Below, in pieces: positions 1,139 to 39,027 of a stretch of 54,757 nt of DNA. Under the pieces are notes generated by a model that saw only the letters and a list, made by a program, of their open reading frames with translations, was not told where the DNA came from and did not search any database. Numbering within the stretch: position 1 is the stretch's first letter; each line of letters begins with the position of its first letter. The position numbers and the translations under genes are program-made. Source of the stretch: a virus (taxonomy: Duplodnaviria; Caudoviricetes); the IMG/VR virus record IMGVR_UViG_3300032270_000402, positions 1 through 54,757 of that record; one strand, written 5' to 3'.

Positions 1139-1139
1139 C

Positions 1140-1168
1140 TTGCACCCACTGGCCGCCGCGCATACACT
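1140..1168 (+). promoter_or_regulatory. Sigma70-type promoter for terL (likely leaderless mRNA)
   Basis: TTGCAC-N17-TACACT ending 6 nt before the ATG at 1175; no SD sequence. Confidence 0.55.
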
Positions 1169-1174
1169 GCGCGG

Positions 1175-2740
1175 ATGGCAGCAGCTATCGACACAGCGGC
1201 TCTTAAGGCGCGAGTACAGTTTGAGGTAGACCGGCGCAGAGCGTCGGCCTCGCTGTATGAGTTCGTCAAGCAGGCGTGGCCGATCGTCGAGCCCGGCGCC
1301 GAGTTCGTCGATAGCTGGCACATCCAGACCATCTGCGAGCACCTCGAGGCCATCACCAGCGGCGAGCTGCGCAAGCTGCTGATCAACATCCCGCCACGTC
1401 ACTCGAAGTCGACCATCGTCAACGTGATGTGGCCGACGTGGGAATGGATCGCCGACCCGAGGCACCAGTACCTCACCGCATCGTTCAGCGGCCCGCTGTC
1501 CATCCGCGACAACCTCAAGGCCCGACGACTGATCCAGTCACCGTGGTACCAAGAGCGATGGGGCCATCTATACCAACTGGCAGGCGATCAGAACGCCAAG
1601 CAGCGATTCGAAAACGATCACATGGGACACCGCATCGCGACCTCAGTAGGCGGTACGACCACCGGCGAAGGCGGTAGCCGACTGATCCTCGATGACCCGC
1701 ACGGCGCGCAAGAGGCGCAGTCCGATGCGATGCGAGACGCGGCGCTGGAATGGTTCGATGCCGCATGGTCAACCCGTCTGAACAATCCCAAGACCGACGC
1801 GATGGTCGTGGTGATGCAGCGCCTGCACGAGCTGGACGTGAGCGGCCACATACTCAACGACCTATCAGGCTGGGAACATATCTGCATCCCTGCCGAGTGG
1901 GACGGCGTCAAGCGCAAGACCTTCCTCGGCAACTACGACCCGCGCACCAAGAAGGGCGAGCTCATCTGCCCCAACCGATTCGGGCCCGATGAAATCGCCA
2001 ACCTCAAGCAGATCCTCGGCACCTATGGCGCCAGCGGCCAGCTGCAACAAGATCCGACACCGGCCGAGGGCGGTATCCTCAAGGCCAAATATTTTGAGAT
2101 GTGGCCAGCCGATCAGGAGCTGCCGCCGTTCATGTACATCCTGCAGTCCTATGACTGTGCCTTCACCGAGAAGAACACGGGCGACCCGACCGCGTGCACG
2201 GTCTGGGGCATCTTCCAGCACAAGGGCAGGCGCAACGTGATGCTGATCGATGCGTGGGACGAGCACCTTGGCTATCCCGACCTGCGGCGCAGGGTGATAC
2301 AGGACTGGACGACCGAGTATGGCGGTGGCGGCAAGTCACTGCACCGCGGCCGACGACCTGACCGCATCCTGATCGAGGCGAAGGCAAGCGGCCAGTCACT
2401 GCTGCAGGATCTGCGTCAGGCCAATGTCCCTGCCGTGGGCTACAACCCCGGCAATGCCGACAAGATCTCACGCGCGCACCAAGCGGCGCCCACGCTGGAG
2501 ATGGGACTGGTATGGATACCTGAGTCCAAGAAGAACGATCGACACCCGGTCAGCTGGGCATCGGCATTCATCAAGCAGGTGGCCAAGTTCCCAGTGGCCG
2601 CGCACGATGACTACGTGGACACGTTCACGCAGGCAGTCATCTACCTGAAGGACGATGGCTGGTTCGAGCTGCCACGGGCGCGCGACATTGACGAGCCCAA
2701 GCCCTACAGCAAGCCGCTGATCAACCCTTACGCGATCTGA
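1175..2740 (+). CDS. terL: Terminase large subunit
   Basis: Walker A-like NIPPRHSKST, Walker B LILDDPH, VVVMQRLHE..D, nuclease QSYDCAF and C-terminal FPVAAHDDYVD. Confidence 0.95.
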   Translation: MAAAIDTAALKARVQFEVDRRRASASLYEFVKQAWPIVEPGAEFVDSWHIQTICEHLEAITSGELRKLLINIPPRHSKSTIVNVMWPTWEWIADPRHQYLTASFSGPLSIRDNLKARRLIQSPWYQERWGHLYQLAGDQNAKQRFENDHMGHRIATSVGGTTTGEGGSRLILDDPHGAQEAQSDAMRDAALEWFDAAWSTRLNNPKTDAMVVVMQRLHELDVSGHILNDLSGWEHICIPAEWDGVKRKTFLGNYDPRTKKGELICPNRFGPDEIANLKQILGTYGASGQLQQDPTPAEGGILKAKYFEMWPADQELPPFMYILQSYDCAFTEKNTGDPTACTVWGIFQHKGRRNVMLIDAWDEHLGYPDLRRRVIQDWTTEYGGGGKSLHRGRRPDRILIEAKASGQSLLQDLRQANVPAVGYNPGNADKISRAHQAAPTLEMGLVWIPESKKNDRHPVSWASAFIKQVAKFPVAAHDDYVDTFTQAVIYLKDDGWFELPRARDIDEPKPYSKPLINPYAI

Positions 2741-3312
2741 TGGCTTACCTGTACCGACTGACCTCGCCCTCGGGCAAGAGCTACATCGGTATCGCCAAAG
2801 ACTACCGCCGACGCTGGACGATTCACCGCTACCGCGCCAACCGCGACGCGCAGGGCGCGCTCTACGCCGCCATACGCAAATACAAATGGGAATCATTCTC
2901 ATCTACAATTCTGGCCATCGGTAGCTTTGAGTATGTCAAGGAGATGGAGGTCAAGGCTATTGCCGCCTTCAACACGTACCAACCGCATGGCTACAACCTG
3001 ACCCGTGGCGGTGACGGGGCGACAGGGCGACCGACGCCCAAGGCGGTGCGTGACAAGATCGCCGCAGGCAACCGTGGCAAGGTGATGACCGCCGCCTCAC
3101 GCAAGAAGCTATCCATCGCGCGCAAGGGCGGCACCGTATCGAAAGAGCAGCGCGCCCTGATCAGTGTCAAGATGAAGCAAGTGTGCGACGCCGAGTGGCG
3201 CAGGCGCAGGGCAGAGACACAGCGCAGGCTGTGGGCAGATCCTGAGTACCGTGCGATGATGCTTGCCAAGCGCAGCGATCGTGCGCTAAAATCCAGCAAA
3301 CCTGCGCCCTAA
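2740..3312 (+). CDS. Free-standing GIY-YIG homing endonuclease with NUMOD3-like DNA-binding repeats
   Basis: YLYRLTSPSGKSYIG...RRW..H, E..AI, GYNLTRGGDG, then R.KI/LS...G repeats; coupled to the terL stop by a TGATG overlap. Confidence 0.85.
   Translation: MAYLYRLTSPSGKSYIGIAKDYRRRWTIHRYRANRDAQGALYAAIRKYKWESFSSTILAIGSFEYVKEMEVKAIAAFNTYQPHGYNLTRGGDGATGRPTPKAVRDKIAAGNRGKVMTAASRKKLSIARKGGTVSKEQRALISVKMKQVCDAEWRRRRAETQRRLWADPEYRAMMLAKRSDRALKSSKPAP
3263..3292 (+). promoter_or_regulatory. Possible sigma70 promoter for the polyvalent-protein/portal genes
   Basis: TTGCCA-N18-TAAAAT inside the 3' end of the GIY-YIG gene. Confidence 0.4.
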
Positions 3313-3327
3313 CCCCACGGTGCCTAC

Positions 3328-6300
3328 ATGGCCGACGCCCCTCCCAAAACCAACATCCGAGACCGTGGCGTTCTTGCGAACCTGCTTGACTTCAACAAGA
3401 TGCGCGATGATTCCGCCGAGGTTGGCAATGCATTCTTCAACAAGAGCACCGAGCACAACGGCCCGTCCGACGCGATGCGTCATGTGATCTTCAACGCCAA
3501 GCTGACCACTGGCACGGGCTCGCGCTTCATCCCGTGGCTATTGGATAAGTTGCACGAGTACGGCGAGACTGCCGCTGGCCAGCCGCGTGCTGAGATGGAG
3601 ATGGACTTGGCGAATGGTGAGCTAGGCCGTGAAATCGGGAAGCTAGGGCTGAGCGATGCGGAAATGGTTGACCTTGCGCAGCGTGCGGTGCAAGGCGGCA
3701 AGGCCGTGTACATGACCAAGCCACCGCAGAAGACTGACTACGCAACCGGCGGTGAGGTGGACACCGAGCCGACCGATCTTGAGCAGGCAGTGCAGGAGCA
3801 GTTCGGTCTTGAGCCCAACCTAGACCGCGCGACACTGCTCCCGTACAAGAGCAAGGACAAGGGCTGGATCGCGCCAGAGGCGCTATACCAAGCCGCCAAG
3901 TTGGTCGCCTCACCGATCACCGCATTGCACGGCAAGTACATATCACCCGAAGAGACGGTCGAGGGCGCGCTGACACTGGGCAGTCCGAGCACCGCCGCTG
4001 GGCTGGTCTCCAAGGCCGAGCCCGGCGTTGCGCGCATGTTCATCGGTCAGAATTCAAATGCATGGGATACTGGCTCACACGCGCTGGCGCTGAAGATGGA
4101 AGACGAAGGCGCAAGCCCGCGCACGATCTGGGAGCAGACCATGAACTGGCGCACGCCAGAAGGCAAGTGGGCGCAAGAGATTAGTGACAAGGGCGCCGTA
4201 TACACGCCAGAGAATGCGCTCGACATTGCAAAAGAAAAGTACAAGAAAGCAACCACTGACATCAAGGCGCGAGCCAAGCAATATCAAGAAGCGCGCGACA
4301 TCAACTTGATGTACAGGGGGCTGCTACAAGATGAGCCCAATCCGTTTGTGCATACGCACACTGAAGGGCCACTAGCAGGCCAGCGCATGCTGCATCCGCA
4401 AACGGGAATGCCAATGATCAAGGAAGGCATGGAAGATGCCTATACAGAATTTAACTCTGCGCTTAAAGATAAAGCGATTCAGAAGTATTCAGAATCAACT
4501 GGCAAGCCAGTCTCTGAGGATGCGCGCTGGATCTTTAGAACGACACCGCTGTGGCAGATTGAAGATGCAATGAGCACCACACCGGCAAGCATTGGTCTTG
4601 TTCGTCCGAGCAAGACGACAATCAGGGACAGCACTGTCGGCAGCACGCTTGAGCATCCTGAACTGTACAGCGCCTATCCTCGTATGGCGAACTATCCTTT
4701 TGACCTACGCGTCAAAGGACAGATGAGCGGATATGCTGCATCGTTCAATCCGTATAGTCGAAAAGTGACCTTATCGGCCGCTTCAAAAGAGCCAACAGCA
4801 TCTATGCTGCACGAGCTGCAGCACGCGGTGCAGGAGCGTGAAGGATGGGAAGGCGGCGCAAGCACAAGTCAATTTTCTCACTTAAACCCAAGCATGGCCA
4901 TGCAGCTTTACCTGCGTAATCTAGGCGAAGGCATGGCGCGCGCCACCGAGGCGCGTAAAGATCTGACGATGGCGCAGCGTAACGCAATCTTCCCTGCCGA
5001 ATCATTCTCATTGCCGAATGTCAGCCCATCTACCACGATGGAGCAGTTTATGTGGCAGGGCATGGATCCCGCCAAGAGATCTTTGATCCTGAAGTATCTC
5101 AACAACAACATTGACGACCTGACATGGAAAGCGCGTATGACAGGCAAGGATGTGGACATCCCGCTGGCCTATGATCCAGATAAGGTCAGCTCGATTACTG
5201 ATAGCCTGAAGGCTGAGATGGCCGAGCCTAAGCCTAAGTTTGCAGAAGGCGGCGAGGTAAGCCTGCCACCCGTGCCGACATTGAACGATGCGCCTACTGA
5301 GTACCGCCAGCGCAAGGACACGCTCAGTGACAAGCTGACCGACCTGAGCATTGGTCTGGGCGAAGGATTAACCAACCAGCTCAAGGGATATTCCGAATTG
5401 ATTGAGCGTCCTATTGACACGGGCAAGGCCATGTACCAAGGCTTGAAGGCTGTGATCAACGATCCATCGGTCATCAAGGATGCGCTGCAGAGCATAGCCA
5501 CCAAGGCAACAGAGTCCCCAGTGGGACTGGGCACGGTCATTGGTGAGAATATCAGCCCAACTGGTTTGGCCAAGCGACTGGCTGGTGTGGGCAAGCCTGT
5601 GCTGAAGGAGCTGACCGTTTATCACGGATCACCGCATACATTTGAGCCTACGCCTAACAATCCTTTGGGTGAGTTCACCGCCAATAAGATTGGAACGGGA
5701 GAGGGCGCACAATCTTATGGCCACGGAATTTATGTAGCCGAAAATCCAGATGTAGCCAAAGGCTATCAGTTTATGGAGAAAAATTGGTTCGATACGGACG
5801 AGGCAACCTACAATGGCAAGTCAATCCAGCATTGGTATGATCAGGCGCAGAAAGATCAAGACCGCGCACACCGTCTAAATAACAAAGCAATGATCAATGA
5901 TGCCAATGCAAAGTTGGCATTCTGGGAAGACATCATGACGCACACTCACCCTGAAAAGGCCGTGAACACGATGCTCAGTCCAGAGTATGACTGGCCAGAG
6001 GCGGCTAAGTTTGCCAAGACCATCAAGCTGGATAAGTTCAAGGGCATACCAGAACCCGGTAATTTGTATACTGTAGATCTGCCTGACGAACACATCGCGC
6101 GTATGCTGGACTGGGATAAGCCGTTGAATGAGCAGCATCCTCATGTGCAGAATGTTATAAAAACAGGAATCTCTGCTGATGCTTTTTATAATCTTGGAAT
6201 CACTAATGATTTCAAAGATGCTTATAACGGGAAAACATTAACCGGAGGGGATCTGGTTGGATTCATGGGAAATCAATTTGATAAAAGCAACGCATCCGCT

Positions 6301-6528
6301 GTTCTTCGAGGTGCAGGCATTCCCGGCATCAAGTATTTGGATGCAGGATCAAGAGACAAGGCAACGGGCACGCGCAACTTCGTCATGTTCCCCGGCGAAG
6401 AGCACAATCTAAAGATACTGGAACGCAAAGCCAAAGGAGGCCTCGTTGCGCAACCGTCCAGTATAGAGTATGATTCGTCAAAGGTACAGTCCATCGTGGA
6501 TCAGCTACGTCAGGAAATCCATGCCTAA
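3328..6528 (+). CDS. Large polyvalent protein: DUF6973/Wnt-like domain + LPD23 + HExxH metallopeptidase + ADP-ribosyltransferase-like domain
   Basis: DAMRH...HE...MDLAN...GR; IWEQTMNWRTPEGKWAQEISD; HPELYSAYP...LHELQHAVQEREGW...GE..AR; YHGSPH...GTGEGAQSYGHGIYVAE...GIPGIKYLD...NFVMF. Confidence 0.75.
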   Translation: MADAPPKTNIRDRGVLANLLDFNKMRDDSAEVGNAFFNKSTEHNGPSDAMRHVIFNAKLTTGTGSRFIPWLLDKLHEYGETAAGQPRAEMEMDLANGELGREIGKLGLSDAEMVDLAQRAVQGGKAVYMTKPPQKTDYATGGEVDTEPTDLEQAVQEQFGLEPNLDRATLLPYKSKDKGWIAPEALYQAAKLVASPITALHGKYISPEETVEGALTLGSPSTAAGLVSKAEPGVARMFIGQNSNAWDTGSHALALKMEDEGASPRTIWEQTMNWRTPEGKWAQEISDKGAVYTPENALDIAKEKYKKATTDIKARAKQYQEARDINLMYRGLLQDEPNPFVHTHTEGPLAGQRMLHPQTGMPMIKEGMEDAYTEFNSALKDKAIQKYSESTGKPVSEDARWIFRTTPLWQIEDAMSTTPASIGLVRPSKTTIRDSTVGSTLEHPELYSAYPRMANYPFDLRVKGQMSGYAASFNPYSRKVTLSAASKEPTASMLHELQHAVQEREGWEGGASTSQFSHLNPSMAMQLYLRNLGEGMARATEARKDLTMAQRNAIFPAESFSLPNVSPSTTMEQFMWQGMDPAKRSLILKYLNNNIDDLTWKARMTGKDVDIPLAYDPDKVSSITDSLKAEMAEPKPKFAEGGEVSLPPVPTLNDAPTEYRQRKDTLSDKLTDLSIGLGEGLTNQLKGYSELIERPIDTGKAMYQGLKAVINDPSVIKDALQSIATKATESPVGLGTVIGENISPTGLAKRLAGVGKPVLKELTVYHGSPHTFEPTPNNPLGEFTANKIGTGEGAQSYGHGIYVAENPDVAKGYQFMEKNWFDTDEATYNGKSIQHWYDQAQKDQDRAHRLNNKAMINDANAKLAFWEDIMTHTHPEKAVNTMLSPEYDWPEAAKFAKTIKLDKFKGIPEPGNLYTVDLPDEHIARMLDWDKPLNEQHPHVQNVIKTGISADAFYNLGITNDFKDAYNGKTLTGGDLVGFMGNQFDKSNASAVLRGAGIPGIKYLDAGSRDKATGTRNFVMFPGEEHNLKILERKAKGGLVAQPSSIEYDSSKVQSIVDQLRQEIHA

Positions 6529-9103
6529 AGAATTTTTAGAAGACGAACAAGACGACGAGCAAGAGGCGGGGGAGACCGTTGAGCTTGAAGACGAGGACGT
6601 GTCGGTTGAAGATACTGACGACGGCGGCGCCGTCATTCGTCTTGACAATGCAGAAGACCTGAAGAAGAACACCGAGCACTTTGCCAACATTGTCGATGAG
6701 GTAGACCAATCCTCATTGCGCGTGGCCGTGAGCCAGCTGCTTGATAAGATCGACAAGGACAAAGAGGCGCGCGAGAAACGCGACAAACTGTACGAAGAAG
6801 GCCTGCGACGCACTGGCCTTGGTGACGACGCGCCCGGCGGCGCGCAGTTCACTGGCGCCAACAAGGTCGTGCACCCGATGCTGGTCGAGGCGTGCGTAGA
6901 CTTCTCGGCGCGCATGATGAAGGAGATCTTCCCACCGACTGGGCCTGTGAAGTCCAAGATCGTCGGCAAGGTCGAGAAAGACAAACAGATTAAGGCTCAG
7001 CGTAAGGCTGACTTCATGAATTGGCAGACCACGGAGCAGATGACTGAATTCCGTGGCGAGCTTGAGCAACTGAGCACGCAACTGCCACTAGGTGGCGCCC
7101 AGTACCTCAAGATGATGTGGAACGCGCAATACCGCCGCCCATCAACCGAATTTATTCCTATTGATGACGTATACCTGCCATTTGCGGCTACCAATTTCTA
7201 CACTGCTGAAAGAAAAACGCATGTGCAATACGTCACCAGTATGGAATACGACCGGCGGGTAGCTGCCGGAATGTACATTGATGTCGATGTCGGCATGCCT
7301 GATGAGGTAGATTTCAGTCAGGCGACCAAGGCAAACGACAAGATCGAAGGCAGAAAGGACACCGCTTACAACGAAGACGGCCTGCGCACCGTGTTTGAGG
7401 TGTACACGTACCTCGAATTTGATGAGGGCATGGCGCCATACATCATCAGCATCGATAAATCCAGCGGTAAGGCGCTAAACCTGTACCGAAACTGGGACGA
7501 AGGCGATGACATGAAGAAGGAATTGGACTGGATCGTCGAATTCCCGTTCATTCCGTGGCGCGGAGCCTACCCAATCGGCCTGACGCACATGCTTGGCGGC
7601 CTTTCTGGCGCCGCGACTGGCGCATTGCGCGCACTTTTGGACTCTGCGCACATCCAAAACATCCCGACCATGCTGAAATTGAAGGGCGGCCCGAATGGCC
7701 AGACCATCAACGTGCAGCCGACCGAGGTGATTGAGATCGAAGGCGGCGCGATGGTCGATGACGTGCGCAAAATTGCGATGCCATTGCCATTTAATCAGCC
7801 TAGTCCGGTGCTTTTCCAGCTCTTAGGCTTCTTGGTTGACGCTGGTAAGGGCGTCGTGCAGACATCCTTCGAGAAATTGTCTGATCAGAACCCAAATCAG
7901 CCCGTCGGGACGACGATGGCGCTGATTGAGCAGGGCATGGTCGTGTTTAGCTCGATCCATTCGCGCCTGCACAACTCTGTTGATCGCGTATTCAAGATTC
8001 TGCACCGAATTAACTCGGCATACTTGACCGAAGAGGACATTAAGGCGCAGGCGGGTGACTTTGAGATCAATCCTGCCGACTTTGATGGCCCAATGGACAT
8101 CATCCCGGTCAGCGACCCTGCAATTTTCAGCGAGACGCAACGATTTGCGCAGATTCAGGCCATCATGCAGCGCGCTCAGGCGATGCCGCAGATGTACGAC
8201 CTGCGCAAGGTCGAGGAAATGTTCCTGCGCGTAATGAAGGTACCGGATGACATTTTGGTAGAGAAGCCCGGCCAAGAGAATCGCGACCCTGTCAGTGAAA
8301 ATGTTGCCGCCTCATTAGGGCAGCCGATTTATGTATTGCCGTCTCAAGATCATATGGCGCACATCAAGACGCACCTTGCCTTCTTGCAGTCGCCACTGTT
8401 TGGCCAGAACCCTGCGATTGTCAAGACGTACCTGTACCCAATGGCCAATCACTTGCGCGATCACTTGCTGAACTACTACCTGACACAGGCGCATAAGGCC
8501 GTGAAAGATGCGACTGACAAGGACTTAATCGGCGCGGATCCACAAGAGCAGACGGACGTCATCCTGCGCACGCAACAATTCCTTGAGCAGCAGATGGGCA
8601 GCTTCGCGCCGATGCTGGCACAGATCGATCAGCAGGCTCAGCAATTTGCGCCACGCCCACCGATGCCACCAGACAACACCATTCAAGTGGCTCAGATGAA
8701 TGCTCAGCTGCAGCAACAATTGGCGCAGCAGCGCATGCAGGCAGATCAGGCAAAGTTGCAGCAGACCACGCAGTTCAAGCAGCTTGAGATGCAGCAGAAG
8801 TCGCAATCTGATCAGGCCAAGATGCAGCTTGAGATGGCCAAGCTTCAGCAGGGCACGCAAGCCAAGCAGATGGATGCGCAGGCATCGATCGAGGAGCAGA
8901 TGCGCGCGCTACAGGCTCAGCAGCAGCTGGAGCAGTTTAGACAGATGCAAGAAAATCAACGCAACACCGAGAGCAACCAGACTCGTGCTGCGATGAATAG
9001 TGCAGACAATGACACCGCGATGCGGCTTGCGTCTGCAGAGATTCTATCTGGTGAGAAGACTGCCCTTAGCACGGGCACTGGCATTAACCCCGGCACGAGG
9101 TAA
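6521..9103 (+). CDS. Portal protein (P22-like, Q-rich C-terminal barrel)
   Basis: ATG at 6521 after AGGA; acidic N-terminus, GANKVVHPMLVEAC, PVGTTMALIEQG..VFSSIHSRLH, DIIPVSDP and a long Q-rich coiled coil; lies between terminase and scaffold. Confidence 0.85.
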   Translation: MPKEFLEDEQDDEQEAGETVELEDEDVSVEDTDDGGAVIRLDNAEDLKKNTEHFANIVDEVDQSSLRVAVSQLLDKIDKDKEAREKRDKLYEEGLRRTGLGDDAPGGAQFTGANKVVHPMLVEACVDFSARMMKEIFPPTGPVKSKIVGKVEKDKQIKAQRKADFMNWQTTEQMTEFRGELEQLSTQLPLGGAQYLKMMWNAQYRRPSTEFIPIDDVYLPFAATNFYTAERKTHVQYVTSMEYDRRVAAGMYIDVDVGMPDEVDFSQATKANDKIEGRKDTAYNEDGLRTVFEVYTYLEFDEGMAPYIISIDKSSGKALNLYRNWDEGDDMKKELDWIVEFPFIPWRGAYPIGLTHMLGGLSGAATGALRALLDSAHIQNIPTMLKLKGGPNGQTINVQPTEVIEIEGGAMVDDVRKIAMPLPFNQPSPVLFQLLGFLVDAGKGVVQTSFEKLSDQNPNQPVGTTMALIEQGMVVFSSIHSRLHNSVDRVFKILHRINSAYLTEEDIKAQAGDFEINPADFDGPMDIIPVSDPAIFSETQRFAQIQAIMQRAQAMPQMYDLRKVEEMFLRVMKVPDDILVEKPGQENRDPVSENVAASLGQPIYVLPSQDHMAHIKTHLAFLQSPLFGQNPAIVKTYLYPMANHLRDHLLNYYLTQAHKAVKDATDKDLIGADPQEQTDVILRTQQFLEQQMGSFAPMLAQIDQQAQQFAPRPPMPPDNTIQVAQMNAQLQQQLAQQRMQADQAKLQQTTQFKQLEMQQKSQSDQAKMQLEMAKLQQGTQAKQMDAQASIEEQMRALQAQQQLEQFRQMQENQRNTESNQTRAAMNSADNDTAMRLASAEILSGEKTALSTGTGINPGTR

Positions 9104-9500: not shown

Positions 9501-9899
9501 ATGAAAAACCCCGCGCTTGAAGAAGCGTTTCCCGTGTGCGACCCCGGTGTTCATCCGCTTGGCTCGCGAATCCTAGTCCAAATCAGAACGCCTGAGACCA
9601 AATCAAAAGGCGGCATCATCCTCACCGAAAGCGATAAAGACACGCAGATGTGGAACACCACAGTTGCCAAGGTTATTGCGACCGGCCCACTTGCCTTTCA
9701 CAACCGCGACACATTGAAGCGTTGGCCAGAAGGCGACTGGTGCAAGCAGGGTGATTATGTTCGAGTCCCCAAGTACGGCGGTGACCGATGGGTCACGACC
9801 AACAGCAAGGGCGAGAAGGCTTACTACATCCTGATCAATGATCTGGACGTACTGGCACTTGTGACAACCGATCCGCTTGAACTAAAAGCGTTTTTCTAA
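9501..9899 (+). CDS. groES: GroES/Cpn10-like co-chaperonin
   Basis: HPLGSRILV...KSKGGIILT...AKVIATGP...GDYV..PKYGG...ILINDLDVLA. Confidence 0.85.
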   Translation: MKNPALEEAFPVCDPGVHPLGSRILVQIRTPETKSKGGIILTESDKDTQMWNTTVAKVIATGPLAFHNRDTLKRWPEGDWCKQGDYVRVPKYGGDRWVTTNSKGEKAYYILINDLDVLALVTTDPLELKAFF

Positions 9900-13096: not shown

Positions 13097-13750
13097 ATGC
13101 CAATCAAATGTTATGTTGTAAATTGCACGGCCCCTGTAATTGCGCAGGGGCTGTGTTCTACTCACTACAAGCGCAAGCAGCGCCATAATTCAACAGAACA
13201 AACCCGCCCAGCAGACTGGGGGCAACGGGAAAAGCATCCTGCATATAAAACATGGTGCGGGCTAATTAGATACCATAAAAATAATATGGATCCTCGTTGG
13301 CAAGAGGATTTTTGGGCATTTGCATCCGATATTCCTGAAAAAATAAATCGCGCACGAGGTTTTAGGATTAATGCTTTACTTCCGTGGAATAAAGATAATT
13401 TTTATTGGAAAGAAACAAGGGTATCAACAGAAGGGGCAAAGCAATATCAACGCAATTTAAGAAAAGCAAATCCAAAATACGGGAAAAACACTTTCTTAAA
13501 AAAACACTACGGCGTAGATCTTGACTGGTTTAACGCAAAATTTGCCGAACAGGGTGGTGTTTGTGCGATCTGTAAGAAGCCAGAGACGGCCGTAATACGA
13601 GGGGTTGCGATCTCACTATCGGTAGATCATTGTCATACCACTGGGAAGGCGCGCGGGTTACTGTGTAGGTCTTGCAACAATGCTCTTGGCATGTTATATC
13701 ACGATCGTGCTATACTTGCTGCCGCGATACTCTATTTGGAGCAATCGTAA
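13097..13750 (+). CDS. EndoVII-family (HNH-like) free-standing homing endonuclease
   Basis: QGGVCAIC...LSVDHCHTTGKARGLLCRSCNNALG; N-terminal C..C..GLCSTHY zinc motif; AT-rich relative to its flanks. Confidence 0.85.
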   Translation: MPIKCYVVNCTAPVIAQGLCSTHYKRKQRHNSTEQTRPADWGQREKHPAYKTWCGLIRYHKNNMDPRWQEDFWAFASDIPEKINRARGFRINALLPWNKDNFYWKETRVSTEGAKQYQRNLRKANPKYGKNTFLKKHYGVDLDWFNAKFAEQGGVCAICKKPETAVIRGVAISLSVDHCHTTGKARGLLCRSCNNALGMLYHDRAILAAAILYLEQS

Positions 13751-14637: not shown

Positions 14638-15078
14638 ATGAAAGGCCCTAAATACGTCAAAGACTTTGACTTTAACGAAAAACCCTGCAACTACAGCTAC
14701 GGCGGCGATGTAAAGATGGCCAGCGGTGGCTATTACGCAAAGGGCGGAAAAGTCTCCAAGATGGTCAAAAAAGAAAGTGTCGCCACGCCGACAATGCGCA
14801 AAGAAGAATCAGTGCGCAGAGTCTCTGTGAAGGCGCCTGCTCGTAAGAGCGTTCCAGTGGCACCATCGCAGCCTATCCTATCTCGTCTCGCAGCAGCGGC
14901 AGCGCCAGAGGCTCCTATGGGACTAAAGAAAGGTGGCATGGCTAAGGTTGGCAAGGTGATGGGCGAGTTTAAGGCAGGCGAGCTGCACTCTGGCAGCAAG
15001 AAAGGGCCTGCAGTGACCAGTCGCAAACAGGCCGTGGCGATTGCGCTCTCTGAGGCGCGTAAGGGCAAGAAGGGCTAA
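14638..15078 (+). CDS. Basic protein with AxGG repeats and a C-terminal DUF6496-like domain
   Basis: YSYGG, MASGG, YAKGG, LKKGG; KVGKVMGEFKAGELHSGSKKGPAVTSRKQAVAIALSEARK. Confidence 0.7.
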   Translation: MKGPKYVKDFDFNEKPCNYSYGGDVKMASGGYYAKGGKVSKMVKKESVATPTMRKEESVRRVSVKAPARKSVPVAPSQPILSRLAAAAAPEAPMGLKKGGMAKVGKVMGEFKAGELHSGSKKGPAVTSRKQAVAIALSEARKGKKG

Positions 15079-22400: not shown

Positions 22401-23472
22401 GCCCGATTATATTGGATTGCATTTTGGAACCGCAACCCAAGCTGCTTCTCAGTTCTGGGTGAGTGATTCAGGAATTTCGCAAACCAGCGGATCGTCTCGT
22501 GCACCAGTATTCTATGATTCTGACAACACTGGATATTACTTAAACCCAAATGGTGGATCAAATTTAGATAGTGTAGTAACAAACGAAGTCTATACCAATG
22601 GATGGTTCCGCAATAATTCAGCCAATTGTGGGTTATATAGTCAAGTACACTTGAACCACTGGTACGCTTCTACTTCTGGATATTGGAATCTTGCCGGAAC
22701 TAATAATAATTATTGTGGAATAGTATTTAGAACTGATGGGCATCAAACAACACCTCGTGGATTTGTTTACGCAGATAACGGTAACAATATAGGGTTCTTA
22801 AATCAAGATGCTAGTTGGAGACTTCGAGTTACTGGGGGAGATTATACTGAGGTCAATGGCTCCTCGATTCGCGCTCCTATTTATTATGACATTGACAACA
22901 CTGGATATTACATAGACCCAAATAATTCTTCTAACATAAATACCATTTATGCTGATAACTGGTTTAGATCATCTGGTAGTACGGGCTGGTATAATTCCAG
23001 TTATAGCGGTGGTATCTATATGCAAGATACTACGTGGGTGCGTGTTTATAATAGCAAAGCATTCTACGTTGATAACCAGATCGCGGCGACGGGCAATATC
23101 ACTGCGTACTACTCAGACGAACGCCTAAAGACTAAAACTAGCAAGATTGAAAATCCGCTAGAAAAGATCAGCAAGCTAGAGGGTTTCCATTACGTCGAAA
23201 ATGAACTAGCCAAGTCACTGGGGTACACTAATGACCGGCAGCAGGTGGGTCTATCTGCCCAGCAGGTACAGAGCGTTCTGCCAGAGGCGGTATCCCTTGC
23301 ACCAGTTGATATGCACACTGATAAGTTTTCTGGCAAAATAACGTCTAAATCTGGCGAGAACTATTTGACTGTTGACTACTCTCGGTTAGTCCCGCTACTT
23401 GTCGAGGCGATCAAAGCGCAGCAGGCTCAGATCGATGAACTAAAACAGCTAGTTGGAAAACTGTCCAGCTAA
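16456..23472 (+). CDS. Giant tail fibre (2338 aa) with C-terminal S74 intramolecular chaperone
   Basis: T/G/S-rich repeats, RMRID..GNVGIGT motifs, and YSDERLK...[13 protein letters not shown]...[15 protein letters not shown]. Confidence 0.9.
16960..20975 (+). repeat. Intragenic fibre repeats: 9 x G[YA]L...DW..FN[NS]K modules
   Basis: Counted in the translation; 18020-18099 and 20175-20255 are near-identical at DNA level. Confidence 0.85.
21571..22935 (+). repeat. Intragenic fibre repeats: 5 x (RAP)I[FY]YD.DNT.YY..P
   Basis: Counted in the translation; they separate variable knob-like domains. Confidence 0.8.
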
Positions 23473-31821: not shown

Positions 31822-32051
31822 GGATCAGCGTCACGCTTCCTACGAACATGCAGGTACGTGACTGGGCTGATCAGATCGCGCTTGACTTGGATCCATATGG
31901 CGCCTTTGGCCGGTTGGATGATGAGAATCGATGGCAGGATTGGGCGATGCAGTTCTTAAACAACACATCCCTTAAGAACAACTTCCCTATTCCGTATAAT
32001 TTTGACAATTGGAAAGACTGGGCAGAGCGATTCTGCGAAGTTTTGGCATAG
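31818..32051 (+). CDS. Trp-rich hypothetical protein
   Basis: ATGA overlap; W.DWA repeats. Confidence 0.7.
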   Translation: MRISVTLPTNMQVRDWADQIALDLDPYGAFGRLDDENRWQDWAMQFLNNTSLKNNFPIPYNFDNWKDWAERFCEVLA

Positions 32052-32062
32052 AGGGTATTACG

Positions 32063-34819
32063 ATGGCATTTCTTCCTCCGCGCATAAATCAGATGCAACG
32101 TCCAATGCAGACGATGCAAAGGACTATGCAGCCTATGATGCCCGTGCAGAATCGCATGCAGGCTCCTGCACGAATGCAGCAGTTTTCTTCTCCTGCGGGG
32201 CAGGCACCGCTGCCCAATCCACAGGCTATGCCTCCTATGTTGCAACCTGCTCAGCAGTCGCCTTTAGCCCCGCAACAACCTATGGGGCAGATGGGGCAAC
32301 TACCTACCGGCATAGATCCCCGTGCCGTTGCTGCTAACCCTTCTGGATTTCAACAATGGCAACAACAAGCATTAGCGCAAGAAGCTGCTATGCCCGGCTC
32401 TACTATGTTTGCCCCGCAACAACCTGCGGGACAGATGGGGTTAGGTGGATTGGGTCAAGGCATGGGCGCACTGCCCCCACAAACTGCTGCAAATACACAA
32501 AATATGGCTCCTATGCTGCAACAGTATTTAGCATCTGGTAATCAACAATCAGCATTGCAACAACCTGCGGGGCAGATGACCGGATGGACTCCAGCAAATC
32601 AAATGCCATCTTCGCAAAATTTGGCAACACAAGGTATTACTCAACAACAATTACAAGCTATGCCTACAGCACAAAAAGCATACGCCGAAGGCGGCGCTGT
32701 AAACGCTCCCAGCCCGCAGGCGTGGATGCCTCCTCCTAATCGATTGCCTATGATGCCGCCACAGCGGCCAATCGGTCAGATGCCTCCACAGGGTATGCCG
32801 CAGCAACCTCCAATGGGGCAGATGCCGCAACAGATGCCAATGGGGCAGATGCCTCCTCAGATGCCACAACGATTTGCTGTTGGTGGTTCAGTTACGCCAA
32901 TGCCAACCCAAGATCAATTGGGAGGAACACAGATCGCGCCTGTGCGGCAGCATGCACAAGGCGGAATGCATCATGATACTTCCAGCACGCCTGTTGATGA
33001 TCAGATGCTTGCCCAGATGCAAAAAAATCCACAATTTGATCAAGTGATTTCCGCTACTCATGAGCAAATGGGAAATATTCCTCTTGATGCGCTCAATGAG
33101 CTGATCAAGATGGTTCGGTTTGCAATGCTTCATCCGAAAAAGTATCCAGAAATCCGTGCTGCGGCAATTAGAGATCATATGGTTGAGCCAGATGATATGC
33201 CTGAGCAGTTTGATGTGCAGTTCTTGGCCACTATGCTTTCAACAATGGTAGCACTAAAAAAACGACAAGAGGCCAAGGGCAAAGAAGGATTTGCAAGTGG
33301 CGGCTTGGCATCAGCTGCAAAACAATTGCAAGCAAAGGGTCGGTACCATGACACGATACTGGCTCACATTAGCCCGCAAGAGGCTGCGATGTTGCGCGCA
33401 AATGGTGGCGCTGGGACAATTAACCCTGCCACGGGGCTGCCTGAATATCTCAGTTTCAGCAGCGTATGGAAAGATATTAAGAATGCCGCAAAGATCGTTG
33501 CCCCAATTATTTTGACTGCATTAGTACCTGCTGCCGGTGCGTATTTAGGTACATTTTTGACCGGCACACTCGGCGCTACTGCAGCAGGCATTGTCGGCAC
33601 TACATTAGCAGGTGGATTGGCAGGTGCAGCTGGCGCCGCTATTCAAGGTACCGATATTGGTAAGGGCGCAATTTTCGGTGGTATCACCGGTGGTCTTGGT
33701 GGCGCTCTTGGCGCCGGGGCAAATGCTCTGGGTAAAGCCGCTGGTTTGACTAAGGGGCTTAGCACTGCCGCGCAAGGATATATTGGCGCAGGATTGGCGG
33801 GCGCAGGCGCCGCTAAACTAACCGGTGAAGACTGGAAACAGGGCGCGCTTAAGGGACTGGCGTCACGTTACGTCTCTAACAAGTTGCAAAACTTCGCGCC
33901 CGTGAAGAGTGCCAATGAGTGGATGCAGGGCAAGGTTGCGCAGCTGACCCCGCCACAATCTACGCCTGCTATGGAGGCAGTCAATTCACTAAAGGACGCT
34001 GGATTTGAGGGAAATACTTTTGTCGCAGGGCAGCAAGTTGACCCCGCTACTGGGGAGGTTTACAAGCCAAACATTGAGGCTGCATCCACATACACTAGCC
34101 CTGATGGCATGCCTAATCTTGATGCAAATGGCAATCCGGTTGTGGAGACGGGTGGGCGTTATATCAATCAAGGCCCAACGGCAGCTGCTGGTACGCCAGC
34201 CGCTCCTGCAGCGCCTCAGACGCTCGCAGGCAAGGCTATGGATGCCGTTGGCTCTGGTCTGCAGACCTCTGCGCTAGTCGGCGCTGTAGGCCTGCTAAGC
34301 GGTTCTGGAGCACCTCCTCCGCCAGCTGTAGAGGCTATCAAGACATTGTCACCTGAGCAACAGGCATACTTCAATCGACCTACGGTGAGACTTGACTACA
34401 ATCGCATGATGCAAAACGCAGCAGCGTCGGGCATGAGTCTCGCGCAATTTATGAATCAGAACTGGAGCACTATTCAGGGCGGCGCTTATAACGTCGCAGA
34501 AGGTGCCGCACCTCCAACGCCAAAGGCACGCGGTGGGCAGGCATATGCCACTGGCGGCGCGCTGTCAAAGATGGCATACTTGGCGCAGGGTTCTGGCTCA
34601 GGTCGTGCTGACACGATTGACGCCAAATTGTCTGATGGCGAGTTTGTTGTTGATGCCGAGACAGTTGCCCTGCTGGGAGACGGTTCCACCAAAGAAGGTG
34701 CACGCCGACTGAATATGATGAGAGAGCAGCTACGTCAACAAAAGGGTGCGGCGCTCTCAAAAGGTAAGTTCAGTCCTGCGGCCAAGTCGCCGCTGGCATA
34801 TATGGCAGGTGCACGATAA
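32063..34819 (+). CDS. Internal virion/ejection protein with Q/P/M-rich N-terminus, six AxGG motifs and a C-terminal G.G..D.I.A.LSDGEFV domain
   Basis: GAGG RBS before the ATG at 32063; DTILAHISPQEA...GTINPATGLPEY; G/A-rich hydrophobic helices. Confidence 0.65.
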   Translation: MAFLPPRINQMQRPMQTMQRTMQPMMPVQNRMQAPARMQQFSSPAGQAPLPNPQAMPPMLQPAQQSPLAPQQPMGQMGQLPTGIDPRAVAANPSGFQQWQQQALAQEAAMPGSTMFAPQQPAGQMGLGGLGQGMGALPPQTAANTQNMAPMLQQYLASGNQQSALQQPAGQMTGWTPANQMPSSQNLATQGITQQQLQAMPTAQKAYAEGGAVNAPSPQAWMPPPNRLPMMPPQRPIGQMPPQGMPQQPPMGQMPQQMPMGQMPPQMPQRFAVGGSVTPMPTQDQLGGTQIAPVRQHAQGGMHHDTSSTPVDDQMLAQMQKNPQFDQVISATHEQMGNIPLDALNELIKMVRFAMLHPKKYPEIRAAAIRDHMVEPDDMPEQFDVQFLATMLSTMVALKKRQEAKGKEGFASGGLASAAKQLQAKGRYHDTILAHISPQEAAMLRANGGAGTINPATGLPEYLSFSSVWKDIKNAAKIVAPIILTALVPAAGAYLGTFLTGTLGATAAGIVGTTLAGGLAGAAGAAIQGTDIGKGAIFGGITGGLGGALGAGANALGKAAGLTKGLSTAAQGYIGAGLAGAGAAKLTGEDWKQGALKGLASRYVSNKLQNFAPVKSANEWMQGKVAQLTPPQSTPAMEAVNSLKDAGFEGNTFVAGQQVDPATGEVYKPNIEAASTYTSPDGMPNLDANGNPVVETGGRYINQGPTAAAGTPAAPAAPQTLAGKAMDAVGSGLQTSALVGAVGLLSGSGAPPPPAVEAIKTLSPEQQAYFNRPTVRLDYNRMMQNAAASGMSLAQFMNQNWSTIQGGAYNVAEGAAPPTPKARGGQAYATGGALSKMAYLAQGSGSGRADTIDAKLSDGEFVVDAETVALLGDGSTKEGARRLNMMREQLRQQKGAALSKGKFSPAAKSPLAYMAGAR

Positions 34820-36285: not shown

Positions 36286-36309
36286 TCGCGGCGCACGTTT
36301 GGAGTAGTT

Positions 36310-39027
36310 ATGGGTTACGAATTACAGAAGCTGCAGAATTTATATGGCGTCAGCGATCCGACGTTGAGCTATATGGGCACGGCAATGCCTGTACGTCCAA
36401 CCGCGCCTACGGCATTGAAGTCTGGCGCTACAGCTGATGAGCAGACTGCGTATAACAAATCGATTGATGCATATAACACTGGTTTAGCCAATTACAATAC
36501 CAATTTACCTAAGTATCAAGAAGATCAGAAGCTCTATAATCAGTATCGTGATCTTTATTCTCAGCGTATGCTGGGCACAAAAATGTATGACCCTGCTGCC
36601 AATCGGCAGTTCTTAAGTGGGCCAGTTTACTCTGGCGCAGATGCAAATCTAGCAGCCGCTCCGCGTTACACTCAGAGCGTAATGCCAGCCAGTCAAGAAA
36701 CATTGCCAACTTTAGTTAGCAAGTACGCGACAGCAGGTGTGCCCGCAACAGGCGGCACGACTGATGGTACATTGTCACATGTCACCACAACTCAGGCACA
36801 GGCACAGGCGCAATATGATGCTGATTTAGCGGCCTACTTGAATACGTGGAAAGCTGCGCATCCATCCCCCATATTAGGAGGAACAACCGCTCAAAACGCA
36901 GCTGCAGAAGAATGGAAAGCACAACATCTATTCGGTCAGGGCAATTATGCTTACGGAGCGACAACCAGTGGCACGACTGGAGGCACGACCGGCGGCACGA
37001 CCGGCGGCACGACTGATGGCACATTGTCACACGCTGGAATGACACAGGCGCAAGCGCAGGCATTATATGATGCGGATAAAGCGGCCTTCTTGCAAAATTA
37101 TGGCCTTTACAATCCTGCGCCCAGTACCTCGTCTGTATATATTGCGCCGCAGACGTTGAGATCACAATTAGCAACGTATGGTGCCGCACAAAATCTCGCT
37201 TTAAGTAAGTGGCAGTCACTCAATCCATTTGGCCAAGGTAAATATATTTATACTTCAGCAACCGGTGGCCCTGTCAATCTTGCGCACGGCGGTCTTGCCA
37301 ATTTATCGCACAAGTATGCTGCAAAACAAGGCATGAATGACTTTTTGCATCCTGAAGAGGCCAAGGCGCGACAGGAAGCAGAAGCAAAAGCACCAGCAGA
37401 GGCACAAGCTAAGGCACAAGCAGATGCTGCTGCCGCTGCAGCTGCCGCTCAGCAACCGCCTGCGCAAGTAGAACAACCACCTGCACAAGTGACACCACCA
37501 GAACAAGTCGTTGTCCCACCATTGGGCGGCGTCACGGCAAAGCCTGCCACTCCTGCGCCGGACTTAGGCGCTAATACACCGCTGCCATTGAAGCCTGCGG
37601 TGAGTGCGCCTAATCCTAATGATCCTGTGGTCTCAGCGATTCGCTCAATGCCTACAGGCACGATGACCGCGCCTACAGTATCGACCAATCCATTGGCTGA
37701 CATGTATAGCAAGTATCAGTCAGTTGCCGCTGATCGTAACGCAACAGCCGCTCAGCAACGCTGGCAGGCTGATCGCAATAACTACATCCGTTCAATGTAT
37801 GGTCTAGGTACGTACACGCCTGATGCGGTCACGCAATGGGAAGCACAGAACGTGATCGGGCAGGGCAAATACAAATATGCCACTGGCGGCGCGGTAAAGA
37901 CCAACTATGCGGATGGAGATTCAGTGCAGACAGGGGCCGACACACTGCAGGCAATCATGGACGGATACATGGGCCAACAAGTTGAGCCTGCTGAAATTAA
38001 AACAGCTCGTGAAAAAGCAAATGCAGATACTCAGGCATTTAGTGATTTGCTGACCAAGTCAACTAGCCAAGAATACAAGCCAGATAAATCTGAAATGTAT
38101 TTCCGTTTGGCTGCTGCCTTCTTGACCCCCGGCAAGACTGGGTCTTTTGGCGAGGGTTTGGGACAGGCTGGCGCTGCAATGGCTGACTATACCAAGGGCG
38201 TGCGTGAAGCTAAACAAGCACAAGATCTGCGCAATGTACAATTAGGCTTAGAGGGTCAAAAACTTAAGATGGCAGCATCTAAGGAAGATCTATCTAGTCA
38301 ACTGGCATTGTACAAGCAAGATCAGTCCGACAAGCGCGCCATCATGAGCAAATTGATTGAGCAAGAAATTGCCTCTGGCAAGCCACAAAGTGAGGCGGGC
38401 AAGCAGGCTGCGGATGAGGGATTGACTCCCGGCACTCCTGACTACACGGCGCGAGTTAAAGCAATAGTCAATGAAAAACTTGCAGCAAGTGCTGACAGGC
38501 TCAATGCTACATTAGCTAATTACCAATCTGCTGGCGCATTACGTGATGCCCAACTAACGGCTTTGCTTAAAAAGCAAGGGCAATTGACACCTGCAGAAAT
38601 GCAGCTTAAAGATACGTCTCGTTCTCTGTTAAATTCATATGACCAATCTCTTTCTATGTTGACCAAGGTATACGAATTGAACAAGAACGCTTTTGGTGGC
38701 ACAAAGGCTGAGCAGGGGCAGCGATTGCTGTTAGATCAAACAGGATCAAAAGATCCGAAATTATTGAACACAAAAGAATTGGAAAACTTACTTGGCTTGG
38801 ATACTGTCAATCAGTTAAAAGCAACTTTCGGCGCTCAATTCACTGCAGCGGAAGGTGCCAAGTTGGAAGCATTGCGCGGTATCAACGCAAAGACAACCGA
38901 AGAACGACGTCGAATCATTATGGATGCTTACCAGTTGCTGAAAGACAAAAAGGCGCGCGAAGAGCAGCACTTTAATGATATTAGCCAAGGCCTCTATTCC
39001 AGAATTGACCAGCCGGAACTTCAATAA
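36310..39027 (+). CDS. Internal virion/ejection protein with internal repeats and AxGG motifs
   Basis: Three W....FGQG.Y.Y repeats, a duplicated GGTTDGTLSH block, AAFLTPGKTGSFGEGLG and a helical C-terminus. Confidence 0.6.
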   Translation: MGYELQKLQNLYGVSDPTLSYMGTAMPVRPTAPTALKSGATADEQTAYNKSIDAYNTGLANYNTNLPKYQEDQKLYNQYRDLYSQRMLGTKMYDPAANRQFLSGPVYSGADANLAAAPRYTQSVMPASQETLPTLVSKYATAGVPATGGTTDGTLSHVTTTQAQAQAQYDADLAAYLNTWKAAHPSPILGGTTAQNAAAEEWKAQHLFGQGNYAYGATTSGTTGGTTGGTTGGTTDGTLSHAGMTQAQAQALYDADKAAFLQNYGLYNPAPSTSSVYIAPQTLRSQLATYGAAQNLALSKWQSLNPFGQGKYIYTSATGGPVNLAHGGLANLSHKYAAKQGMNDFLHPEEAKARQEAEAKAPAEAQAKAQADAAAAAAAAQQPPAQVEQPPAQVTPPEQVVVPPLGGVTAKPATPAPDLGANTPLPLKPAVSAPNPNDPVVSAIRSMPTGTMTAPTVSTNPLADMYSKYQSVAADRNATAAQQRWQADRNNYIRSMYGLGTYTPDAVTQWEAQNVIGQGKYKYATGGAVKTNYADGDSVQTGADTLQAIMDGYMGQQVEPAEIKTAREKANADTQAFSDLLTKSTSQEYKPDKSEMYFRLAAAFLTPGKTGSFGEGLGQAGAAMADYTKGVREAKQAQDLRNVQLGLEGQKLKMAASKEDLSSQLALYKQDQSDKRAIMSKLIEQEIASGKPQSEAGKQAADEGLTPGTPDYTARVKAIVNEKLAASADRLNATLANYQSAGALRDAQLTALLKKQGQLTPAEMQLKDTSRSLLNSYDQSLSMLTKVYELNKNAFGGTKAEQGQRLLLDQTGSKDPKLLNTKELENLLGLDTVNQLKATFGAQFTAAEGAKLEALRGINAKTTEERRRIIMDAYQLLKDKKAREEQHFNDISQGLYSRIDQPELQ
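36970..37022 (+). repeat. 12-bp tandem repeat (GGCACGACYGRH x 4.4)
   Basis: Encodes GTTG/GTTD units. Confidence 0.85.

Follow-up and report, generated by a model that had tools for sequence, protein, structure and literature searches.

A Min-Wnt (DUF6973) domain at the head of a probable, portal-adjacent polyvalent protein in a tailed-phage genome

The window analysed here is the whole genome of an uncultured tailed phage, the IMG/VR virus record IMGVR_UViG_3300032270_000402 (54,757 bp, completeness rating 100%, GC content 51.8%). Upstream of its portal gene lies a long plus-strand open reading frame (ORF) encoding a protein of 1066 residues, and it is with the N-terminal domain of this protein that we are concerned. 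Residues 1-137 are a Min-Wnt (DUF6973) domain, a member of the SAA-Wnt clade of the lipocone superfamily; we consider both the family and the fold assignment solid. Animal Wnt is descended from bacterial Min-Wnt domains. This phage carries such a domain as the first module of what is probably a polyvalent protein, whose gene lies in the virion-gene block beside the portal. The ORF, the domain and its three conserved motifs are positioned as follows.

3328..6528, + strand, frame +1: polyvalent protein P0001, 1066 residues (recognised from the ORF, its domain matches and relatives with shuffled modules)
3328..3738, + strand: Min-Wnt/DUF6973 lipocone domain, residues 1-137, with the Pfam match at nt 3382-3690 (Pfam, AlphaFold2, structural matches)
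3469..3483, + strand: DAMRH of helix 2, residues 48-52, with D48, R51 and H52, the predicted H2 catalytic His (alignment)
3550..3567, + strand: LHEYGE of helix 3, residues 75-80, with H76 and E77, the predicted H3 catalytic Glu (alignment)
3601..3630, + strand: MDLANGELGR of helix 4, residues 92-101, with D93, the predicted H4 Asp, and N96, G97, G100 and R101 (alignment)

An earlier note on this DNA had described a phage-encoded, minimal Wnt-like domain at 3328-3738. The motif strings that it quoted are all found in frame +1 of the ORF 3328..6528, and the phage origin is borne out by a complete virus record with terminase, portal and capsid genes. Its interval does cover the domain but takes in only the first eighth of the 1066-residue ORF, and the notion of a minimal, stand-alone protein has to be given up, the domain being the first module of a much longer polypeptide.

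The Min-Wnt domain and its pocket residues

Residues 1-137 alone score 38.8 bits against the Pfam profile DUF6973 (PF22322), whose curated gathering cut-off is 27 bits (E 7.9e-10; residues 19-121 matched to profile positions 11-120 of 124), so that the hidden Markov model (HMM) search proposed in the earlier note as a check comes out positive, at a level far beyond chance. The whole 1066-residue protein reaches 34 bits (E 2.5e-8), and a separate profile search of the genome gave 38.1 bits for the same match. When the protein was compared by phmmer with 1.84 billion cluster representatives, 162 proteins were recovered at E<=1e-3; of these, 13 also pass E<=1e-10, and E<=1e-30 is reached by 3. 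Conservation was assessed on an alignment of 153 rows, made from the 150 listed of these 162 matches together with the relatives, after regions shorter than 70 residues had been dropped. A phage clade of eight members (P0001, the window protein, and P0002-P0008) is set apart from the remaining 145 rows.

Among these 145 homologues outside the clade, helix 2 is marked by D48 (144/145), R51 (141/145) and H52 (145/145), and helix 3 by H76 (124/145) and E77 (145/145). In helix 4, D93, N96 and G100 are each found in all 145 sequences, M92 in 144 and R101 in 124. The window domain keeps every one of these residues, H52, E77 and D93 included, and the His, Glu and Asp are also invariant in the 64-sequence alignment used for structure prediction. 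E80 is invariant among the clade rows of two alignments (7/7 and 6/6).

The clade departs from the family at position 97, which outside it is Asn in 86 and Asp in 59 of the 145 homologues and never Gly (0/145). All eight clade members have Gly here, and the G seen in the earlier note in place of the second N is thus correct and extends to the whole clade; as judged from these alignments, the N97G change is specific to it. Helix 4 does not carry the sNxxGR motif intact: the window reads N-G-E-L-G-R, the G100-R101 end being retained. In the available text of PMC12419801 (Burroughs, Nicastro and Aravind, eLife 2025), the conserved Asn is placed four residues after the H4 Asp, with a small residue before it. 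From this description we infer that D93 corresponds to the pocket Asp of H4, and that position 97 is where sNxxGR has its accessory polar residue.

AlphaFold2, run on the 64-sequence alignment, predicts a confident five-helix bundle (mean predicted local distance difference test score, pLDDT, 89.8; predicted template modelling score 0.82) with helices at residues 22-36, 46-63, 67-81, 87-104 and 110-122. The bundle so predicted is the four-helix lipocone core with the fifth helix of the SAA-Wnt clade. Compared with 48,161 representative chains by VIA-align, the model matches BteO (9uu0) best (Z 11.8, root-mean-square deviation 3.6, 122 residues, 15% identity), followed by human WNT8A (9.1), Drosophila WntD (6.3), human PSS1 (6.0) and, at rank 7, PSS2 (5.7). 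Foldseek found no match in the PDB at E<=0.001, SAA3 (E 0.4) and SAA1 (E 1.0) being ranked top. Realignment of its 243 candidates placed BteO at Z 12.0, Wnt3a at 9.8 and five SAA chains (SAA3/SAA1) at 8.4-7.0, with the next candidate at 5.4. The fold relation thus became visible only with the VIA aligner, not with Foldseek, and the aligner itself warns that helical bundles can attain such Z values by chance; we nevertheless credit the matches, because known superfamily members fill the top ranks together with BteO, in which the same motifs occur. The structural check suggested in the earlier note is therefore also positive, the best alignments being to BteO, Wnt3a/Wnt8A, WntD and SAA1/SAA3. 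TelC and YfiM are not among the structural matches listed. At the sequence level, a search of the PDB with the single sequence returned nothing, and with the clade profile BteO alone (E 0.3). Within a library of viral structures, the model is matched best by 'DUF6973 domain-containing protein' entries of uncultured Caudovirales, a 1438-residue protein and a 900-residue 'PcfJ-like protein'.

BteO is a type VI secretion system (T6SS) effector of Bacteroides fragilis, reported in PNAS 2025 (PMC12541434; PDB 9uu0) as a non-enzymatic binder of the OmpA C-domain. According to the part of that report available, alanine changes at R143/H144, H167/E168, D187 and D191 abolish both toxicity and OmpA binding. 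With an offset of 296 to 9uu0_A, these essential residues fall on the alignment positions of the RH pair, the HE pair, E89 and D93, and the five identities checked all fit; the HMMER alignment of BteO is off by one in helix 3 because of an extra residue at position 67 in the phage clade. The residues lining the OmpA groove of BteO thus coincide with the predicted catalytic set of Min-Wnt domains, and the 'non-enzymatic' label may deserve a second look.

The polyvalent protein, its relatives and its genome

Beyond the Min-Wnt domain, the 1066-residue protein contains further putative modules and three copies of a short motif that we call the border motif.

4036..4197, + strand: LPD23-like module, residues 237-290 (24.5 and 26 bits, just below the cut-off of 27)
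4519..5007, + strand: zincin-like module, with HELQH at residues 495-499 (nt 4810-4824; phrog_21376, E 7.3e-8, residues 398-560)
5608..6426, + strand: C-terminal module, possibly ART-PolyVal-like, with YHGSPH at 5620-5637 and GHGIY at 5719-5733 (assignment weak)
3739..3759, + strand: border motif, copy 1, YATGGEV, residue 138 (pattern [FYK]A.GG.V)
5239..5259, + strand: border motif, copy 2, FAEGGEV, residue 638, preceded by a YDPDKV...L helix at nt 5170-5220 (same pattern)
6427..6525, + strand: border motif, copy 3, KAKGGLV, residue 1034 (6427-6447), with the conserved C-terminal tail YD..KVQSI.DQL..E (alignment)
14734-14754, 32681-32701, 32873-32893 and 37876-37896, + strand: border motif copies in other ORFs (same pattern)

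Pfam DUF6782 also matches the zincin-like module weakly (E 0.011-0.037), and tblastn relates this module to proteins of F116-like Pseudomonas phages at 28-33% identity. For the C-terminal module, Pfam ART-PolyVal gives 15.2 bits against a cut-off of 31.2 (E 0.039) and the Atlas a lead only (score 0.92, a cluster with 11% ART-PolyVal), and an HMM that we built from four ART-PolyVal modules scores about 0 bits on it, lending the ART assignment no support. No transmembrane segment or signal peptide is predicted in the protein, the highest hydropathy mean over 19 residues being 0.77. The protein contains no cysteine.

A polymorphic toxin with a Min-Wnt tip was considered and rejected: the domain is N-terminal and the next gene encodes the portal. 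No match to PAAR, RHS, LXG or HINT was found in the 1066-residue protein by Pfam scan.

Six relatives retain the N-terminal domain (62-99% identity) but differ in their downstream modules. Three of these modules score above the Pfam cut-offs, namely PcfJ in P0004 (31.3 bits vs 25), LPD23 in P0005 (29.5 vs 27) and ART-PolyVal in P0007 (34.9 vs 31.2). The same partners recur among distant DUF6973 proteins: ART-PolyVal in P0043 and P0027, with P0148 just below the cut-off (31.0 vs 31.2 bits) and P0065 weak; PcfJ in P0011, P0015, P0024, P0039 and P0095, with P0018 and P0048 just below the cut-off; and an SLT transglycosylase domain in P0109 and P0039. Other pairings are with PT-HINT in P0023 and with LysM in P0062.

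Each of the three border motif copies in the protein sits at the border of a module. Four further copies lie in three other plus-strand ORFs, at 14638..15078, 32009..34819 (two copies) and 36310..39027, giving seven in 15,863 residues, as against 0.09 on average over 2000 shuffles and at most 2 in any of them. No copy was found in the window's other reading frames. A slightly wider pattern occurs in 53 of 155 proteins (P0001 and the DUF6973 homologues), mostly flanking the domain or near the C-terminus, and a shared tail, YD..[KR][VA]Q.I.D.L, ends all seven aligned relatives. The pattern may represent a processing or packaging signal, and the conserved tail, together with the motif that recurs in other large late proteins, suggests a common handling signal.

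Two other IMG/VR contigs, L002 and L003, have the same gene order, with a terminase of 521 residues, a GIY-YIG protein of 186, a polyvalent protein of 1272 and a portal of 877, and their aligned stretches in this region are 90-97% identical to the window. By blastn, positions 1139-3309 match L002 at 97.1% identity. Positions 3310-3603 have no counterpart there and 891 other nucleotides take their place (L002 4107-4997; L003 369-1232). Identity with L002 resumes, at 94.3%, at nt 3604, which is the codon of D93. Residues 1-92 of the Min-Wnt domain are therefore replaced in L002 and L003 by a head of 297 residues, helices 4-5 remaining as a remnant of 46 identical residues, with three synonymous differences. 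The presence of this remnant implies that the form with the Min-Wnt domain came first. Two further stretches of the polyvalent gene, 4197-4788 and 6150-6315, have no megablast match in L002 although their flanks are 91-94% identical; the gene is therefore mosaic at several points and not at its head alone.

The replacing head has seven homologues, all in proteins that bear PcfJ or LPD23. In L003 it has no Pfam or PHROG match, and the Atlas was uninformative (score 0.82). Its AlphaFold2 model is poor (pLDDT 50.9). Of the eleven chains that match it best in structure, ten belong to lytic transglycosylases, to lysozyme-like chitinases or to muramidase effectors (among them MltF at Z 5.8, a chitinase at 5.7, Slt and Tse3 at 4.9 each and MltD at 4.8), and on this model a lysozyme-like nature is suggestive only.

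The genes that flank the polyvalent gene are the following.

1175..2740, + strand: large terminase subunit (Pfam Terminase_6C, E 5.1e-9)
2740..3312, + strand: GIY-YIG gene resembling homing endonucleases, after the terminase gene and before the polyvalent gene (Pfam GIY-YIG, 23.7 bits vs a cut-off of 22.6)
6470..9103, + strand: portal protein (phrog_1216 portal, E 1.7e-16; 50% identity to gp094c of Caulobacter phage RW)

Annotation by Pfam and PHROG gives the order terminase, GIY-YIG, polyvalent gene, portal, GroES-like gene and capsid, and the start of the portal gene overlaps the 3' end of the ORF 3328..6528. By portal sequence, the closest cultured relatives are the Caulobacter phages RW, KcrB, RLK and GB2A (50% identity), then Roseobacter and Pelagibacter phages. 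Phage RW has the order terminase, tRNA-Val, portal, with the polyvalent gene absent at this site; as no gene lies there between terminase/tRNA-Val and portal, the polyvalent gene is an insertion, an accessory gene. The terminase gene of phage RW is annotated as two pieces flanking a methyltransferase gene. L002 also carries a GIY-YIG gene right after its terminase gene, and an HNH/endonuclease VII-like gene directly after the capsid gene of the window (13097-13750) is the second homing-endonuclease-like gene of the structural block. The GroES-like co-chaperonin gene, at 9501-9899 between the portal and capsid genes, occupies the same position in phage RW.

Further downstream, PHROG tail-fibre matches in an ORF of 2338 residues (16456-23472) are confined to the C-terminal ~340 residues. 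Residues 2220-2279 of this ORF form a Peptidase_S74 (endosialidase chaperone) domain, and its first ~2000 residues are unmatched. At 32009-42750 stand five successive large ORFs (936, 488, 905, 681 and 573 residues), none with a Pfam match; one has a PHROG match (function unknown) and two contain the border motif. These five may encode internal or ejection proteins.

Searches for further copies of the domain in phage collections returned little. In a tblastn search of 50,697 GenBank phage records, the 137-residue domain had no real match, only two at chance level (E 0.05), which fall in the capsid gene of a haloarchaeal virus; the whole protein matched these records through its zincin and C-terminal modules only. 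An IMG/VR scan with the single protein recovered L002 and L003 alone, both with the 46-residue remnant, and a scan with the phage-clade alignment gave no match. In a scan of metagenome contigs, one weak fragment of 23 residues was found and nothing else.

Possible functions of the domain

We know of no Min-Wnt protein whose enzyme activity has been demonstrated biochemically. Two members of other lipocone clades offer a chemistry. TelC, the lipid II phosphatase of Streptococcus intermedius, cleaves this precursor and, as summarised in PMC12419801, works only outside the cytoplasm. YfiM of E. coli, in the part of a preprint available (10.64898/2026.09.16.752124), is a Ca2+-dependent lipid-linked-oligosaccharide pyrophosphatase that needs K28, H31, E72 and D91, and its overexpression leads to osmotic lysis. 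The same available text of PMC12419801 offers action on lipid head groups by Min-Wnt domains as a prediction only.

The reading that we consider most likely, with moderate confidence, makes the domain a virion-delivered head that would cleave a phosphate-linked head group off a wall precursor carried on undecaprenyl. Put more widely, the protein would be an effector ejected from the virion and directed either at lipid-linked wall precursors or at the links between peptidoglycan and outer membrane. The 1066-residue protein would be synthesised late, be packaged in the phage head close to the portal and leave the virion together with the DNA. Having no export signal, it would be harmless in the cell that produces it; late synthesis in the absence of an immunity gene is conceivable because both BteO, reported to be toxic only with periplasmic targeting (PMC12541434), and TelC are inert in the cytoplasm. 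Once ejected, the Min-Wnt head would act at the host envelope through a pocket formed by R51/H52, H76/E77, E89 and D93. Its substrate could be lipid II or another undecaprenyl-linked glycan, attacked as reported for TelC and YfiM, and cleavage would locally weaken the wall or stall its synthesis at entry. The N97G change of the clade would probably retune the pocket and not kill it. The analysis shows the family, the fold, the conserved residues, the phage origin, the position in the virion module and the shuffling of modules; that the protein is packaged and ejected, where and on which substrate its head acts, and that it does so by catalysis, we infer. The earlier note had left open whether such an enzyme serves at entry or in superinfection exclusion; the context favours delivery at entry, since the gene lies in the virion module and its cassette swaps with a putative lysozyme-like module.

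Several points weigh against this reading. Packaging and ejection are deduced from gene position and from analogy with the polyvalent proteins described in PMC5512222. The LPD23, zincin and ART matches of the window protein all lie under the Pfam cut-offs, and the zincin and ART-like modules, like the PcfJ of relatives, should find their targets in the cytoplasm, which makes the site of action of the N-terminal head less certain. The model behind the lysozyme-like reading of the replacing head is poor (pLDDT 50.9, with no Z above 5.8). A contig scan of 185,579 species genomes found no prophage relative, only one spurious archaeal fragment. The N97G change of the clade could mean altered or lost activity. 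Lastly, BteO, the closest solved relative, is reported to be non-enzymatic in the text available to us, so that by analogy the conserved pocket could be a binding groove.

This last point leads to an unlikely alternative, in which the domain is a non-enzymatic, BteO-like binder that reaches the periplasm at ejection and whose groove clamps the C-terminal peptidoglycan-binding domain of an OmpA-family protein, or another envelope protein; the effect would be a loosened tether between outer membrane and peptidoglycan, or a docking of the ejection apparatus. BteO is indeed the best structural match (Z 11.8 and 12.0 over 122 residues), and the equivalents of the groove residues whose mutation costs it binding and toxicity are all kept in the phage domain. 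However, sequence identity to BteO is only 15%, and the assays reported for BteO in the available part of PMC12541434 covered sacculus degradation, that is peptidoglycan hydrolase activity, and amidase activity, and not lipid-linked precursors. The same residues are, besides, the catalytic set reported for YfiM, and the His, Glu and Asp stay invariant in 145 diverse homologues whose partners differ widely, as would be expected of catalysis more than of binding to one protein. We consider it improbable, too, that the protein is an unpackaged intracellular enzyme which late in infection depletes lipid-linked precursors of wall or surface polysaccharides and thereby blocks superinfection or aids lysis. 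The lack of an export signal and the assembly of lipid II and other carriers on the cytoplasmic face would suit such an enzyme, and PMC12419801, as far as its text was available, states that intracellular Min-Wnt domains are encoded by some tailed phages, where they may limit superinfection. Against it stand the reported inertness of TelC and BteO in that compartment, the position of the gene inside the head-morphogenesis block, where it overlaps the portal gene, the packaging predicted for polyvalent proteins in such a context (PMC5512222), and the conserved tail and border motif shared with large late proteins, which suggest common handling.

A catalytically dead or decaying domain that serves the polyvalent protein only as a spacer, for structure or for packaging, seems very improbable. 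It would account for the Gly at position 97, where all 145 other homologues have Asn or Asp, and for L002 and L003, which discarded the first 92 residues and so show the module to be dispensable. The other pocket residues are nevertheless invariant in eight clade members that are only 62-78% identical overall, a pattern indicative of purifying selection on the pocket, and the invariance of G97 itself within the clade fits a fixed functional variant and not decay.

Returning to the virion-delivered enzyme, a broader proposal, which we place on the unlikely side, is that this phage lineage has interchangeable envelope-breaching heads on a virion-ejected polyvalent protein, a lipocone enzyme taking the place of the usual lytic transglycosylase, with [FYK]A.GG.V as the shared processing or packaging signal. 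If so, it would represent a previously unrecognised virion route through the cell wall, or a way of disabling it, at entry. Should the delivered-enzyme reading itself hold, an activity directed at lipid carriers would join the known repertoire of virion-borne effectors; if the function proves ordinary, a well-supported annotation of a family known from metagenomic phages is still gained. A phage Min-Wnt domain delivered with neither secretion signal nor immunity gene would also be a simple system in which to test the function of the pocket, and the swap between Min-Wnt and putative lysozyme-like heads in near-identical phages provides a ready-made natural comparison.

Comparison with known systems

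Domains of this kind, and the fact that phages carry them, have been published before and, under automatic names, are present in databases. What is new here is the polyvalent, portal-adjacent context, the clade-wide G97, the swap with a possibly lysozyme-like head, the border motif and the coincidence of the BteO residues with the predicted catalytic set. The string 'polyvalent' does not occur in the main text of PMC12419801, nor 'polyval' in six of its supplementary files, and our literature search found no paper that joins 'Min-Wnt' with 'polyvalent' and none that names 'DUF6973'.

With the Min-Wnt family as a whole, the phage domain shares the HMM match, the predicted four-helix core with its fifth helix, the H2 His, H3 Glu and H4 Asp, the Gly-Arg end and its soluble nature. 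It differs in having Gly for the sNxxGR Asn throughout the phage clade, and in heading a polyvalent protein instead of being the C-terminal tip of a toxin, being fused to DUF3892 or standing alone as a secreted protein.

BteO, the best structural match, has the RH, HE and D..NN..GR motifs in common with the family, and its toxicity residues are the conserved Min-Wnt residues. BteO however has an N-terminal transmembrane helix, a cognate immunity protein that mimics OmpA, a T6SS locus and the NN pair, none of which accompanies the phage domain; no T6SS gene was found in the annotation of the phage genome. The words 'Wnt' and 'DUF6973' do not appear in the available text of the BteO paper (PMC12541434). 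TelC and YfiM share with the phage domain the lipocone superfamily and the His/Glu/Asp pocket positions, and their substrates, in the sources as available, are undecaprenyl-pyrophosphate-linked envelope precursors; they belong to other lipocone clades, TelC being delivered by a type VII secretion system and YfiM being a membrane protein.

Polyvalent proteins, known from phages and plasmids, are predicted, in the available text of Iyer et al. (J Bacteriol 2017, PMC5512222), to be packed into the capsids of portal-terminase phages and injected. As there, several unrelated effector-type modules appear to be joined here in one polypeptide, with LPD23, zincin-type, ART-PolyVal and PcfJ modules found in the window protein or its relatives; the phage is likewise of the portal-terminase kind, virion genes adjoin and modules are shuffled among relatives. 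A Wnt-like or lipocone module is what sets the present protein apart, 'Wnt' being absent from the text of PMC5512222 that was available.

A last parallel is with phage proteins built on another enzyme. Lytic-transglycosylase heads are known on ejected phage proteins, for example gp16 of T7. The fold differs, as does the presumed chemistry, which would be directed at the head group of a lipid carrier and not at a glycan strand, and a role in an ejection channel is unevidenced for the protein described here. The arrangement is the same, with a presumed envelope-acting enzyme placed N-terminally on a large, putatively virion-borne protein, and the Min-Wnt head is swapped for a probably lysozyme-like one in L002 and L003 and fused to SLT in P0109 and P0039.

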